Below are positions 41,511 to 53,138 of a stretch of 64,000 nt of DNA, piece by piece. The stretch spans positions 22,360 to 86,359 of the forward strand of contig CABUID010000002.1 of NCBI GenBank assembly GCA_902491575.1, in the 5' to 3' direction. The translations under genes were made by a program, and so were the position numbers. Below the pieces are notes generated by a model. The model was not told where the DNA came from. It worked only from the letters and a program-made list of their open reading frames with translations, and did no database searches. This DNA is from an uncultured Bacillota bacterium. GTDB taxonomy: Bacteria; Bacillota_I; Bacilli_A; RFN20; CAG-631. Position 1 is the first letter of the stretch. Every line of letters begins with the position of its first letter.

Positions 41511-41519
41511 TGCTAAAAT
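41511..41519 (+). promoter_or_regulatory. extended -10 (TGCTAAAAT) upstream of the helicase-kinase operon
   Basis: TGnTAnAAT about 27 nt before ATG 41546. AGGAG SD at 41531-41535. Confidence 0.4.
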
Positions 41520-41545
41520 AAAAATAATATAGGAGTTGATAATCA

Positions 41546-44500
41546 ATGGCAAACATTCAAGAAAAGTTCGAAATTTGGTGCAAAAAGCTTTATGATATTT
41601 CAAAAAGAAATTATATGATGAATTTTACAGGGCAACATAATCGTTCTTTATTGCTTAACCAACCAGATATGTTTCAGTTGTATCGTCTTTTAGTATTAGA
41701 AGACAAATCCCTCTCCTTTAAAAGAAATATTACCAGAGAAAATAATTTTAATGTATTTGCTATTGAAACTTTAATACAAGCTTTAGGAAGTGATTTTTCA
41801 TTTAAAGAGGGTGATATTGACACGACTACCTTTAAAGATAAAAATTCCTATGATGTTTTAAGAAATATCAAAAGAGTTGCAAATGAATTTAAAATGGAAC
41901 AAGGAATAGATGTAATGTATATTACCTTTGCTTATCTTCGTTGGCAACCTCCTTTTAGTAATGAATATTATAAAACACCTTTAATCAATGTTCCTGTAGT
42001 TTTAGAACAAGAAAATATGAATGCTTTATATAGTGTTTCACGAATTGGAGATCCAGAAATAAATCCGATTTTAAAATATATGCTGGAACAACAAGGCATC
42101 TTTTTGCCAGAAATGAATGAATTATCTTTAGAAGAATATTTAACAAATTTAGAAAAATTAGTTAATGAAAACGGATGGGAAATTCTTCAAGAAGCGACTT
42201 TATGTATTTTATTTTTTCAAAAAATGGTTATGTTTAAAGACTTACAAACTAATCAACAAAGAATTTTTAATCATCCTATTTTAAAGGCTTTTTGCGATGA
42301 AACTTTATTCGATATGTCAGAAGATGATTTGGATTTTGATCATGACCATGAAAATGAAAAAGATCGATTAATTGTTGTCCAGGCAGATTCTAGCCAAATG
42401 GATGCTATTTCTTTAGCAAAAAAAGGAAAATCTTTTGTATTACAAGGGCCTCCAGGTACTGGAAAATCGCAAACAATTACCAATATTATTGCTCAAGCGA
42501 TTGGAAATGGTCAAAAAGTATTATTTGTTTCCCAAAAAACAGCAGCTTTGGAAGTTGTTTACAATAAATTAAAAAATGTAGGCTTAGATGAATTTTGTTT
42601 ACCTCTTCATAATCATAAAATAAATAAAACAAAAATTGTCAATCAAATTTACCATCCTTATTTATTGAAAAAAACGATGGTGAAACAAGAAAAATTAAAT
42701 GAACTAGACCGTTTACAAACTTTAAAAGTTGAAATTAATCAATATGCACAAAATATAGCTCAAAAAGTATATCATTTAGATATGTCTTTTCTTGATATGA
42801 TAAACAGCTATTATGAAGTTTGTGATGTAGAAGATGGCGATTTTGATATTTTAAATTGGGCGACCATTACACAAAATCAATTGAATGAAACGTTAACGAC
42901 CATTAAAATGTTTGAAGAGCAATACCAAAACTATCAACAAGAAAATCACCCTTGTTTTGATGATTGCTTAATTGTTTCTTTAACATTACTTGAAAAAGAA
43001 AATCTTGAAAAAAAATTATTAAAAACAAAAGAAAATATTCAAAGTGTAATCACTTTATTAGATAGTATTAATTTTTATATTGCTGATTTTCAAATTGCCT
43101 TTAAAGATTCATGGCAAGCAATAAAAGATTTACAAATGGTCATTGAAAAGAATAGGAATAATTTTAATTTTTTACAAAATCATGATGGTAAAAAAATAGT
43201 TCTTTTACTTGAACAAATTCAAAATAAAAAGAATCTTTTACAAGAAAATGAAAGATATTTAAAAAAGATTTTTAAAGAAGAAATATTGACTTTAGATTTA
43301 AAAGAAATTGCACTTCCAATACAAGAAAATTTACAACTTGTCAATCAATCTGTTTTATTTTTTAAAAATCAAAGTCATGAATATATTTTTACGCATTTAA
43401 TGGATTATCAAGATGCTTTAGAAAGGCATATTCGTTATCAAAAAGAAATTTCTGATGCAAAATCTACATTAAAAAGGATGTTAAATCTAACGACGGATGA
43501 ATTTGAAAATTTAAATTATTATGAACTATGGGAAGAATTAAATAACAATTCTTATGATTTAACTTTTATTGATATCGTATATAAAGATTATGAAACCATA
43601 AAAAAGCAATTGATGCAAGTGAATCATACGCAACAAGAAATAAAAGATATCCAAGATTTAATTCGTTCATATGCTATACTTTCTATTTTAAACATCGATA
43701 AAGATGCTCTATTAAATTATCAATTTATCATCAATAATACAGAAAATTCTTTTACATTGCTTTTTAATTCTGCTAAAAGAGAATTGCGAAAAGATGTTTT
43801 TAATACCCTTAGTGTATATTTAAAAGAAAATGTAAAGGTTAATCAAGAAAACATAGAAAAAGTTTTAAATTTATTAGTGAAGTATCACCAATTAAAAGAA
43901 CAAATGGACAATGAACTTACTTCTTTAAACGATCAAATTTTAGAAGGCAAGGAATTTACAATTGATATGGATTTTGCCAATCTATTAAAAGAATTCGAAA
44001 AAATACATCATATTTTCAATTTATTACCCAATATTCAATTAGAAACATTAAAAAATATTTTAAGTTTTGCAAGTAAAGAAATCATTAAAGAGCAAATTCA
44101 TATTTATATCGAAGCAAAAGCTCAATTATTTAATAATGATAAAAAATATTCTATTTTCGTTTCTAATCAAAATCTTGAAGAAAACGTAGAATATCTTCAC
44201 CGTCTTACTCAATCTCTTCAAAAACTATCTTGTTATCTTACCAATTCATTTGAAATGAATCATTTAGATGAGTATTTAAAGAGGATGATGGTGTATCAGG
44301 AAACGAAAGAAGAATATGAAAAAAATGGCAAATTGTTATCTTCTATTTGTCCAGACTCTACCCTTTATCATCAATTTATGGAGCAAAATGAAAATATTCG
44401 TTTTTTCTTTGCCTTTTGTGAAAAATATTCTATACAAGAACGTTCTTTCTTTCAATTAAATGAATCTCACTTTCATGAAATTACAGAAAGTATTCAACAT

Positions 44501-51253: not shown

Positions 51254-53087
51254 TTTTACTAAATGGCATAATGAAATAGCTTTATTCAGTCAAATCAAAC
51301 CTATCTTAATTTTAGAAGGTAATGTTTTAGATACTTATCAGTATCCTATCACCCAAGAAATTTTAAATTTAAATCAATATCTTTATAAATTTTATCAAGA
51401 AAAAGGATATAAAAACATTATATTTTATGATAATTTGGATGGATTTTATAATGATTTAGATGCAGAACACATTGAACGTTTTGCCAAACTTACTCATACT
51501 TCTGTTTGTACACGAGAAAATGAAAAATTTATACCTGCAAATTTTCGAGACAATAGTGCTTCCAATGCTATACGTTATTCTTTAACGCAAAACGATGAAT
51601 CCACAGTGGTGATTATGGGATTAGCTTCTCATTATATCATTTCGCCAACTCAAATTATGTTAGATGATGTCAATGCTTTTGCTAGTATTATTAAATCATC
51701 AATGAATGCTAAAGATGTTAAAGAAAACGAAAAGAAATTAAAAAATATTGTTATTTTTATTGTCAACAAAGTAAATGATATACCTTCTTGGTTTTATTTA
51801 GATAATCCTAATGTTAAAACAATTTATATTGATACACCTTCGATGGAGGAAAGAGAAAATTTTGTAAAAGGTATAAATTTTAAAACTTTCTTTATGAAAC
51901 CTGTGCAAGAAGAAATTGAATTATGCGATGAAAAGCAATTAGAAAAAATCCAAAATCAATTTGTAGGGCAAACCGAAAATATGCGCTTTACGGATTTAAA
52001 TGCCTTAAGAAAATTATCTAAAAGTGAAAGTAAGCATATTTCAGATTTGCCTAAAATCGTCGATTTATTTAAATTTGGCATTAAAGAAAATCCATGGAGT
52101 AAAATCAATTATAAAGACTTTATTCATGTACAAGAAGATTTATCAAAACGTGTTTTAGGTCAAAAAATGGCTTTAAATAAAGTGACAGATATTGTTAAAA
52201 GAGCAATATCTGGTTTGTCAGGATTACAACATTCATCCTCAAATAGTAAACCAAAAGGAATTTTGTTTTTTGCTGGACCCACAGGTACAGGCAAAACAGA
52301 AACGGCTAAAGCATTAGCTGAAAAAATATTTAAGGATGAATCTGCGGTGATTCGTTTTGATATGAGTGAGTATCAACAATCACACTCGGACCAAAAACTT
52401 TTAGGTGCCCCTCCTGGATATATTGGTTATGATAGAGGAGGACAATTAACCAATGCAGTGAAAAACAATCCTTTTAGTATTCTTTTGTTTGATGAAATTG
52501 AAAAAGCACATCCTTCTATTTTAGATAAGTTTTTACAAATTTTAGAGGATGGACGTTTGACAGATGGACAAGGAAATACGGTTTATTTTTCAGAATCTAT
52601 CATCATTTTTACTTCAAACTTAGGAACAATGGATCCTGAAACAGGAAATCAATTAATTAGTATGAAAAATTCCTATGAAGAAAATAAAACCATAGTAAAA
52701 AAACAAATTCAATATCATTTCCGAAACAAATTAAATCGACCAGAAATTTTAAATCGAATCGGTATCGATAATATTGTTGTGTTTGATTATATACATGAAG
52801 AAGTTGCAAAACAAATTCTATCTATGCAGATTCAAAAAATTATGGATAATTTTAAACTTAACAAACAAATTACTTTAAGTCTTTCAAATACATCCATCGA
52901 TTTCCTTGAAAAAAAAGCGATTCAAAATTTAGAAGATGGGGGCAGAGGAATCGGCAATGCTGTCGAAACTTATCTTATCAATCCATTATCTCGTTATCAT
53001 TTTGATCATTTTGATGAAAACTTAAAGGAAATACATATTCAAAATATTTTAGTAAATCAAGAAGATGAGGTAAAACTAGTTTGTTAA
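51240..53087 (+). CDS. AAA+ ATPase with a ClpA/ClpB D2-type (AAA_2 + D2-small) module and a ~300-aa uncharacterised N-terminal domain
   Basis: FFAGPTGTGKTETAKALA (Walker A), LLFDEIEKAH (Walker B), IIFTSNLG (sensor 1), GAPPGYIGYDRGGQLT. Overlaps the upstream gene by 14 nt. Confidence 0.8.
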   Translation: MAKNNFTKWHNEIALFSQIKPILILEGNVLDTYQYPITQEILNLNQYLYKFYQEKGYKNIIFYDNLDGFYNDLDAEHIERFAKLTHTSVCTRENEKFIPANFRDNSASNAIRYSLTQNDESTVVIMGLASHYIISPTQIMLDDVNAFASIIKSSMNAKDVKENEKKLKNIVIFIVNKVNDIPSWFYLDNPNVKTIYIDTPSMEERENFVKGINFKTFFMKPVQEEIELCDEKQLEKIQNQFVGQTENMRFTDLNALRKLSKSESKHISDLPKIVDLFKFGIKENPWSKINYKDFIHVQEDLSKRVLGQKMALNKVTDIVKRAISGLSGLQHSSSNSKPKGILFFAGPTGTGKTETAKALAEKIFKDESAVIRFDMSEYQQSHSDQKLLGAPPGYIGYDRGGQLTNAVKNNPFSILLFDEIEKAHPSILDKFLQILEDGRLTDGQGNTVYFSESIIIFTSNLGTMDPETGNQLISMKNSYEENKTIVKKQIQYHFRNKLNRPEILNRIGIDNIVVFDYIHEEVAKQILSMQIQKIMDNFKLNKQITLSLSNTSIDFLEKKAIQNLEDGGRGIGNAVETYLINPLSRYHFDHFDENLKEIHIQNILVNQEDEVKLVC

Positions 53088-53110
53088 TTGAAAACTTTAT
53101 TTTATCATTG

Positions 53111-53138
53111 CACTAAGTTTCTAACTTAGTGTTTTTTT
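53111..53138 (+). terminator. intrinsic terminator ending the six-gene operon
   Basis: CACTAAGTT-TCT-AACTTAGTG followed by TTTTTTT. Confidence 0.75.

Follow-up and report, generated by a model that had tools for sequence, protein, structure and literature searches.

What is encoded by a run of overlapping genes that joins a helicase-nuclease to a protein kinase, a radical enzyme and an unfoldase? The question is raised by a stretch of 64,000 nucleotides of contig CABUID010000002.1 (positions 22,360 to 86,359; assembly GCA_902491575.1, from an uncultured Bacillota bacterium), hereafter called the window. Six open reading frames (ORFs) on its forward strand encode, in this order, a superfamily 1 (SF1) helicase-nuclease (HEL, gene 1), a Hanks-type Ser/Thr kinase (STK, gene 2), a protein without assigned family (G3, gene 3), a zinc-ribbon protein with an FHA domain (FHA, gene 4), a small radical S-adenosylmethionine (SAM) enzyme (rSAM, gene 5) and an Hsp100-like ATPase (AAA+, gene 6). 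The original prediction, made from the DNA sequence without database searches, took this operon for a candidate undescribed defence or conflict system. We found the same gene order in about 60 independent loci at 23 to 57% protein identity, which is far beyond chance. Our preferred reading, held with about even confidence, is that the operon is a conflict (anti-phage or anti-plasmid) system in which HEL, an effector of the Hhe type, would be placed under a control and activation module of five proteins.

The six ORFs either overlap or lie 1 nt apart. HEL and STK share 23 nt, STK and G3 overlap in an ATGA (4 nt), G3 and FHA overlap by 10 nt, FHA and rSAM are separated by 1 nt, and rSAM and AAA+ overlap by 14 nt; re-reading the ORFs reproduced exactly the six genes and every junction that had been predicted, and Pfam agreed with all of the domain readings made by eye. 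Two of the starts were set by comparison with relatives. The longest ORF of STK begins at 46929, and because its homologues begin at MMNQEENKITMLNP, the start was placed at 46965. Likewise, the longest ORF of rSAM begins at 50600, and since all 52 of the 52 homologues begin with MYVAR, position 50639 was taken as the start. Stoichiometric co-expression of one machine, as first proposed from this packing, would be consistent with such an arrangement.

The distribution was surveyed by scanning an alignment of the AAA+ N-terminal domain against one genome per species (185,579 species genomes), which gave at least 287 loci, a motif-limited lower bound. Eighty loci were fetched, their ORFs were called and clustered, and six-frame translations were rescored with hidden Markov models (HMMs) of the families. 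Most of the hosts were Clostridia (Lachnospiraceae, Oscillospiraceae, Ruminococcus, Blautia, Butyrivibrio), and others belonged to Erysipelotrichaceae, Gracilibacteraceae and Desulfosporosinus. They are strict anaerobes of gut and rumen, which fits oxygen-labile radical chemistry. The canonical order was HEL, STK, G3, FHA, rSAM, AAA+, PP2C, DUF4236. Counted only in loci with enough flank, the occupancy next to AAA+ was 72/76 for rSAM, 65/68 for FHA, 58/61 for G3, 54/58 for STK, 66/78 (85%) for PP2C, 37/53 (~70%) for HEL and 27/63 (43%) for DUF4236. The AAA+ and rSAM genes were always adjacent and overlapping, and HEL immediately preceded STK in 43 of the 58 loci that could be evaluated, in several families. 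The question raised earlier, whether the genes co-occur in unrelated genomes, was thereby answered, as the same order was seen in Lachnospiraceae, Oscillospiraceae, Erysipelotrichaceae, Desulfosporosinus and on a rumen plasmid. An invariant core locus of the whole clade was ruled out by the patchy occurrence in the survey and by copies on mobile DNA.

Around this backbone the loci varied. Lineage-specific inserts and appendages included a BspA-type leucine-rich repeat (LRR) protein, a PC4-like small protein, membrane proteins, an MBL hydrolase and Endonuclease_NS_2. The window copy and its closest relative, from an uncultured rabbit-gut 'Bacilli' metagenome-assembled genome (MAG), are reduced forms that end with AAA+, without PP2C and DUF4236, and are followed directly by def. 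In a divergent copy (L004; G3 35% identical) the AAA+ gene is split in two, and past it come a pair of ~690-aa proteins without assignment and a protein of 1157 aa with a Tubulin_2 domain. In another locus (L020) an HEL-STK pair lies downstream of AAA+.

HEL is the member of the operon with recognisable relatives among defence proteins. A single polypeptide holds DUF4011, an SF1 helicase (Walker A GPPGTGKS, motif II DEASQ) and a C-terminal MTES_1575/Vsr-like nuclease of the PD-(D/E)xK type, the architecture of Hhe and PDC-S37. In PADLOC, HEL matched PDC-S37 with 995 bits (2.6e-299) and Hhe with 443 bits. In NCBIfam it scored 993 bits against ProA (NF058533; cut-off 1500; best stretch, residues 620-1767) and 619 bits against Hhe (NF042953; cut-off 2000). 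Because residues 103-1623 align near full length to positions 129-1710 of the 1797 in the Hhe profile, yet the score lies under the cut-off, we regard HEL as a homologue of Hhe and not as its equivalog. The earlier call of a Upf1/Dna2-like helicase with a PD-(D/E)xK module was right as to the domains; the class is narrower, that of the Hhe/PDC-S37-type helicase-nucleases. All three are catalogued as acting alone: PDC-S37 is a one-gene candidate system in PADLOC, while Hhe, reportedly described by Gao et al. in 2020, and ProA each have an NCBIfam entry as an anti-phage protein by itself. HEL is likewise built but coupled to five more conserved genes, as it overlaps STK and as the kinase module follows it in those 43 loci. 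Similar helicases also occur stand-alone in Bacteroides and in haloarchaeal replicons, which fits a self-sufficient effector that gained a control module, and HEL is presumed to be a DNA-targeting effector. A further link between DUF4011 and radical SAM proteins outside Bacillota may exist in the right flank of P. aeruginosa cDHS1, going by part of one account (Johnson et al. 2023, PMC10250203).

The kinase and the FHA protein have the appearance of a signalling pair. With the motifs HMDIKPAN and DFG in place, STK looks catalytically active; its C-terminal half (~290 aa) has no assigned family. Across 60 homologous kinases, the N-terminal tails carry 2-5 tandem T-x-[ILVM]-N motifs (here TxIN), with repeats of the form T-x-[ILVM]-N(P/S) spaced ~10-13 residues apart (e.g., in L065, L057 and L084). 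Their density averaged 2.9 in the first 90 aa and 0.06 per 90 aa elsewhere, a ~48-fold enrichment. The FHA protein places its FHA domain behind two zinc ribbons and retains all of the signature residues (GR, SxxH and N), and the TxIN threonines are likely to be its phosphothreonine ligands. Kinase and FHA protein would thus work as a pair, with PP2C as the opposing phosphatase in most relatives.

The fifth gene was called an NrdG-type radical-SAM activase in the original prediction, and both Pfam and the family profiles agreed. Its sequence shows a GPxxR motif, a CX3CX2C cluster (CHHHCKGC) and GGDP, and the consensus of the family alignment (A4) reads LGPGxR...CGCxRxCKGCSNPELW...TITGGDP. Searched against the PDB, the family profile had PflA (E 1e-7) as its nearest match and the peptide epimerase YydG as the following one, with QueE (0.07) at a distance. 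In its cluster, GPGxR-type motif, GGE/D motif and nearest profiles, the protein belongs to the superfamily of glycyl-radical-enzyme activases. With these activases it also shares its small size, and it differs from NrdG and PflA by a family-specific conserved C-terminal extension (IQNF...SVGIH) and by the absence of a glycyl-radical enzyme from the operon. Nor is it a second NrdG. NrdG, PflA and NrdG3 were its top matches in NCBIfam, and it scored 107.2 bits against NrdG (TIGR02491; cut-off 126.1); it shares only 35% identity with the genuine NrdG of the window (Fer4_12, 171 bits), which adjoins NrdD 12 kb upstream. In ~70 other loci the genes on either side of its homologues encode FHA and AAA+, and nrdD is not among them. 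NrdG, PflA and YydG act on protein or peptide backbones, and rSAM would by analogy act on a protein. The motifs 'MGY' of G3 and 'GFY' of AAA+ are noted as unproven candidates for a glycyl-radical loop (RVxG[YF]).

Its constant neighbour, AAA+, was predicted to be a ClpB-D2-type unfoldase, and this was borne out. D2 is an intact ring: Walker A (GPTGTGKT), Walker B (LLFDEIEKA) and a pore loop of the ClpB type (GAPPGYIGY; GAPPGY[IV]GY in the family) are all kept. Residues 1-290, the N-terminal region that the prediction had singled out for structural analysis, proved to be a degenerate D1 ring, with 'ILEGN' in the place of the P-loop and no Walker B; between families this region is 44-50% identical. 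An AlphaFold2 (AF2) model, for which database proteins served as input, had a predicted local distance difference test (pLDDT) score of 82.4 and aligned in Foldseek over ~650 columns to two-ring ClpC/ClpB/ClpA (E 1e-29). In NCBIfam the scores were 273 for ClpB (cut-off 1232), 225 for TssH (885) and 233 for ClpA (993). With scores below these cut-offs and one active ring out of two, AAA+ is no equivalog of these Hsp100 proteins, and its fold still aligns to both rings. The model and the motifs are those of a predicted ClpB-like threading motor without N-domain or M-domain. ClpP was considered as an alternative effector (L011) and set aside, since no ClpP-docking IGF/IGL loop was read in AAA+ and ClpP was found upstream in one lineage only.

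G3 matched no family in Pfam, PADLOC or NCBIfam, and its conservation is concentrated at the two ends. The N-terminus MSGPK, together with Y9, is invariant in 58/58 aligned homologues; the body is long, variable and helical or coiled-coil; and a conserved C-terminal alpha/beta domain carries G319, Y320, G324, G357, C389, G403 and P414. The sequence profile of G3 gave nothing but coiled-coil noise against the PDB. The AF2 model (pLDDT 80.5) had as best matches the AdoMetDC-like N-domain of spermine synthase (E 2.6e-3, TM ~0.2) and the AdoMetDC of T. maritima, too weak for an AdoMetDC-like assignment. A word-indexed search returned 23 matches, or 24 with the G3 alignment as query, because coiled-coil words swamp the prefilter. 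An exhaustive HMMER search of 1.84 billion representatives found 963 clusters at 50% identity, almost all of them full length, 465 of these at E<=1e-30.

Outside Bacillota, the AAA+ protein with the dead D1 ring recurs at ~33% full-length identity on plasmids of Acinetobacter, Moellerella and Photobacterium. There it lies in a five-gene operon with the order MkoA-like SF1 helicase (320 bits), PIN protein, ~375-aa coiled-coil protein, AAA+ and NrdG-like rSAM, the last of which aligned to the Bacillota rSAM family (A4) with an hhalign probability of 99.7%. Neither kinase nor FHA protein is present in these loci. The proteobacterial operon appears to be an unnamed sister system. As the pair recurs on these plasmids, what stays constant across phyla is AAA+/rSAM together with a helicase and nuclease, and the kinase/FHA/PP2C layer is an elaboration of the Bacillota. 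The ~375-aa coiled-coil protein was compared with G3 as a possible homologue, which was not supported: hhalign did pair the stretch whose likeness had been noticed by eye, but with E 0.08-0.3 and probability <1%. The Acinetobacter locus (L100) goes on with a small kinase-type ATPase resembling VakA/PDC-M51B and with a second rSAM, which is viperin-like (pVip 1e-11); these may be a neighbouring system of the pVip type or a continuation of the operon.

The operon was then compared with described systems. As had been claimed, no named multi-gene system was assigned by PADLOC or NCBIfam, and matches to known single-gene defence families came from HEL alone; G3, FHA and rSAM had no PADLOC match, pVip included in the case of rSAM. 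In PMC open access and bioRxiv full text we found no paper with this gene combination, and the publication behind the NCBIfam 'anti-phage protein ProA' was not found in full-text searches. The only paper that contained the searched terms describes other systems (Kaur et al. 2020, PMC7159879). The module of kinase, phospho-reader, rSAM and unfoldase is apparently new, joined to a helicase-nuclease of a known kind.

Partial likenesses are several. A Hanks-type kinase within a defence operon is also found in BREX-2/Pgl (PglW), MADS (MAD6, MAD8), the TerY-P triad, PD-T4-6 and Stk2, and the TerY-P triad also couples the kinase with PP2C. STK scored 23 bits against PglW (cut-off 990) and 71 bits against MAD6 (cut-off 460), and matches to mad8 were weak and limited to the P-loop. 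Methyltransferase, PglZ and vWA (TerY) were absent from the six proteins and from the recurrent linked families of related loci, and the exclusion of BREX-2/Pgl for want of a PglX-type methyltransferase and PglZ was therefore justified. Mokosh (MkoA helicase plus phospholipase D (PLD) nuclease) shares the pairing of SF1 helicase and nuclease, but has no kinase, FHA, rSAM or AAA+; HEL matched MkoA with 94 bits in the helicase core only, and no PLD domain was found in the six proteins. AAA+ matched DolB (3e-21) and PDC-M37B (6e-30) of Dodola/PDC-M37, in the D2 ATPase core only, and PADLOC matched none of the six proteins to the partners DolA or PDC-M37A. The threonine-phosphorylation pathway of the type VI secretion system (T6SS) consists of the kinase PpkA, Fha1, the PP2C phosphatase PppA and the AAA+ protein ClpV. 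The likeness lies in a single locus with a Hanks kinase, FHA, PP2C (85% of copies) and an ATPase of the ClpB family; it is one of analogy and not of membership, as the D1 ring of AAA+ is dead and as rSAM, G3 and the helicase-nuclease are extra. None of the T6SS structural genes (TssA-M, Hcp, VgrG), whose absence had been noted for the window, was seen among the recurrent families or the 150 neighbours of ~80 loci. The operon thus lacks the defining features of MADS, TerY-P, BREX-2/Pgl, Mokosh, Dodola/PDC-M37 and the T6SS pathway.

Some copies lie on DNA that moves. One is carried by a 44-kb rumen plasmid of Aristaeella lactis (NZ_CP069422); cultured strains that carry the operon include Mediterraneibacter agrestimuris DSM 111629 and Cuneatibacter caecimuris DSM 29486. 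A 15-kb element bearing the operon is 96.5% identical between a Faecalimonas umbilicata MAG and a metagenome contig, which is attributed to [Clostridium] scindens from the NCBI name of its AAA+ protein; both elements have as neighbours an SLFN_AlbA_2 gene and a set of three serine recombinases. Among 150 proteins flanking the system, SduA (Shedu), GmrSD, pAgo and NADAR (PDC-M42C) occurred two times each, and Fic, AbiEii-like, PRTase-CE, FtsK-like and SLFN_AlbA_2 proteins were also present; these are raw counts, suggestive of a conflict role. Patchiness, the plasmid copy, the recombinases, swappable add-ons and defence neighbours are together the hallmarks of a conflict system.

Set beside the gene order, domain identities, conservation, co-occurrence, TxIN repeats and dead-D1/live-D2 architecture, all of which were observed directly, the defence role and the following order of events are inferred. 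Infection would switch on the kinase through its C-terminal half, and the kinase would autophosphorylate the TxIN threonines of its N-terminal tail. The FHA protein would read these phosphothreonines and nucleate a complex on the elongated coiled coil of G3. The unfoldase would then expose or thread a protein segment from which rSAM could abstract a backbone hydrogen, a step that might irreversibly license or release the helicase-nuclease, or another linked effector. In most relatives PP2C would reset the switch; the window copy would have lost both PP2C and DUF4236.

A number of observations weigh against reading the operon as a conflict system with HEL as effector. The STK tail in the window holds one clean TxIN motif (KITMLNP), and PP2C is missing there. 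The G3 model had no PDB match at E<=1e-3, its C-domain included, and Pfam recognised a Gly_radical domain in none of HEL, STK, G3, FHA and AAA+, the only case in the window being NrdD. Absence from PADLOC (2023), NCBIfam (2026) and the searched open literature is not proof of an undescribed system, and a publication that is not indexed, e.g., the source of ProA, could cover part of it. In fifteen of the 58 loci (~26%) the operon opens with the kinase and is preceded by unrelated housekeeping genes, so the helicase cannot serve as the effector everywhere. Those 15 loci, the cataloguing of PDC-S37, Hhe and ProA as single-gene systems, the stand-alone relatives of HEL and the displaced HEL-STK pair of L020 would all suit two independent systems that happen to be adjacent, a stand-alone HEL and a separate module of five to seven genes with its own effector (the unfoldase/rSAM pair, DUF4236 or downstream nucleases); the two would then have in common no more than a transcript and a place in a defence island. 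We think this unlikely, in view of the 23-nt overlap of HEL and STK and of HEL lying immediately 5' of STK in 43/58 loci across families. Distant proteobacterial AAA+/rSAM operons, moreover, independently hold an SF1 helicase and a nuclease, which argues for a functional link between helicase and module over chance adjacency. It is rather improbable, in our estimation, that rSAM is the true effector, which upon kinase/FHA signalling would make a modified nucleotide or small molecule in the manner of viperin, consume SAM or inflict radical damage on a phage protein handed over by the unfoldase, with the helicase as nucleic-acid sensor or auxiliary. That rSAM and AAA+ form the most constant pair, the only one conserved across phyla, and are kept in helicase-less loci speaks for it, as do the weak pVip matches of the proteobacterial rSAM (2.5e-7) and the second rSAM and VakA-like kinase added at one locus; but the family profile is far closer to NrdG/PflA than to QueE, and at ~200 aa rSAM has the size of a minimal activase, with no obvious nucleotide-binding extension and no PADLOC match to pVip. 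Somewhat more credible, though still doubtful, is that rSAM and the Hsp100 unfoldase form the core and that radical chemistry on a protein (G3, the unfoldase or a protein of the invader) is the committed immune step, gated by phosphorylation in Bacillota and wired to helicase and PIN protein in Proteobacteria.

The remaining points of this kind concern the window locus itself, and they bear on whether the operon is immune at all. A test for variable presence between nrdD and def among close relatives had been proposed, and in the window species the locus looks fixed, as 18 of 18 contigs with an identical def gene carry the operon. The locus is syntenic with that of a relative at 68-73% nucleotide identity, its G+C content is the same as that of its flanks, without compositional deviation, and no att-like pair of repeats was found around it. 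Fixed, compositionally native, syntenic and free of flanking repeats, it behaves as a stable chromosomal locus here. Its place between nrdDG and def would agree with a role outside immunity, in a housekeeping or stress pathway under phosphorylation control (for instance DNA repair, restart of replication or protein quality control tied to anaerobic metabolism) that anaerobic Bacillota occasionally carry on mobile DNA. Some helicase-less copies do lie among metabolic genes, searches of GenBank phages and IMG/VR yielded no copy, and modules of the ClpB-like and PknB/FHA/PP2C kinds are well-known regulators of housekeeping functions. Even so, we consider such a pathway the least probable of the alternatives, because its very sparse occurrence is a poor fit to a housekeeping function. 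The near-identical copies beside recombinases in the C. scindens-attributed contig and the Faecalimonas MAG, the plasmid copy, the nuclease, LRR and MBL accessory genes, the defence neighbours and the anti-phage annotation of the HEL family also stand against it.

If the conflict-system reading is correct, hundreds of anaerobes of gut and rumen have subjected a helicase-nuclease of a known stand-alone, anti-phage type to a phosphothreonine switch like those of eukaryotes. A protein-directed rSAM activase and a ClpB-like unfoldase would then be a combination of enzymes new to immunity, and glycyl-radical-activase-like enzymes would have a function outside metabolism. The defence would be specific to a strictly anaerobic microbiota, and screens in aerobic E. 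coli or Bacillus would be blind to oxygen-labile systems of this kind. That the AAA+/rSAM core is a categorically new, oxygen-sensitive immune mechanism, limited for the most part to anaerobes, seems to us a long shot worth naming. The operon would also offer a tractable bacterial model of kinase/FHA/phosphatase control over a nuclease, with the TxIN repeats, MSGPK and the dead-D1/live-D2 architecture as handles.

Table 1. Coordinates of the operon genes and of other features in the window and in related loci (L numbers)
Feature	Location	Strand	Length	Content and basis
Six-gene operon	window 41546-53087	+		ORF reading
Extended -10 TGCTAAAAT	window 41511-41519	+		5' of HEL, read directly
Shine-Dalgarno AGGAG	window 41532-41536	+		5' of HEL, read directly
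HEL (gene 1)	window 41546-46987	+	1813 aa	Pfam DUF4011 1e-18, AAA_11 8e-16, AAA_12 6e-18, MTES_1575 3e-17
STK (gene 2)	window 46965-48674	+	569 aa	Pfam Pkinase E 1.6e-29
TxIN region of STK	window 46965-47060			T-x-[ILVM]-N(P/S)
G3 (gene 3)	window 48671-50035	+	454 aa	
FHA (gene 4)	window 50026-50637	+	203 aa	Pfam DZR 1.1e-8, FHA 3.8e-6
rSAM (gene 5)	window 50639-51253	+	204 aa	NrdG/PflA-type; Pfam Fer4_12 E 9e-30, Radical_SAM
AAA+ (gene 6)	window 51240-53087	+	615 aa	Hsp100 (ClpB/ClpC)-like; Pfam AAA_2 E 7e-51
Intrinsic terminator	window 53110-53139	+		10-bp stem GCACTAAGTT/AACTTAGTGT (53110-53132), 3-nt loop, T7 tail
TldD/PmbA gene pair	window 30492-33211			metallopeptidases
28-nt direct repeat	window 34283-34310		28 nt	
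Islet ORF	window 34430-35416		328 aa	no Pfam match
GmrSD	window 35442-37829	-		
28-nt direct repeat	window 38280-38307		28 nt	abuts 3' end of tRNA-Thr
tRNA-Thr	window 38305-38378	-		
nrdG, nrdD	window 38473-41182			upstream of operon
def				downstream of operon
CYTH-domain gene	window 55582-56148			
MFS/methyltransferase fusion	window 56163-57803		546 aa	
Recombinase block	L007/L008 13847-21758			downstream of operon; SLFN_AlbA_2/HATPase_c_4 (intact or split), helix-turn-helix gene, three tandem large serine recombinases
Recombinase block	L009/L010 13845-21710			as above; the two blocks are those of the [Clostridium] scindens-attributed contigs and the Faecalimonas MAG
Genes past PP2C	L099 14681-24589			Aristaeella lactis plasmid
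Divergent operon copy	L004 4596-11377			
Proteobacterial operon	L100 743-10462			Acinetobacter pNDM1_010055
Proteobacterial operon	L102 1478-11431			Moellerella pW18-2-a
Proteobacterial operon	L106 1692-11399			Photobacterium toruni plasmid
ATPase and second rSAM	L100 10733-12715			VakA/PDC-M51B-like; pVip

The signals at the two ends of the operon differed in how clearly they stand out. The promoter-like element predicted upstream of HEL is present on the forward strand, but it is not statistically distinct from the AT-rich background: in this DNA of 28% G+C, 69 promoter-like matches were observed and 78.9 were expected from shuffles, so the promoter is plausible by position only. The strong terminator was confirmed as a 10-bp stem with a T7 tail, the stem lying 23 nt past the stop of AAA+. 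No structured RNA matched an Rfam family.

A tRNA-linked GmrSD islet near the operon had been noted, and GmrSD indeed lies 3.7 kb from it. The islet of 4 kb, made up of GmrSD and one other ORF, is enclosed by a 28-nt direct repeat (27/28 identical) whose second copy abuts the tRNA-Thr gene. The two copies resemble attL and attR sites left by the integration of a defence islet.

On the Aristaeella lactis plasmid, a DUF4236 gene lies upstream of the operon on the opposite strand, and past PP2C there follow a DUF6273 protein, a second kinase (952 aa) and three large hypothetical proteins. In the window, a TldD/PmbA metallopeptidase gene pair is found upstream of the GmrSD islet, and a CYTH-domain gene adjoins a gene for a fusion of a major facilitator superfamily (MFS) transporter with a spermine/spermidine-synthase-like methyltransferase.

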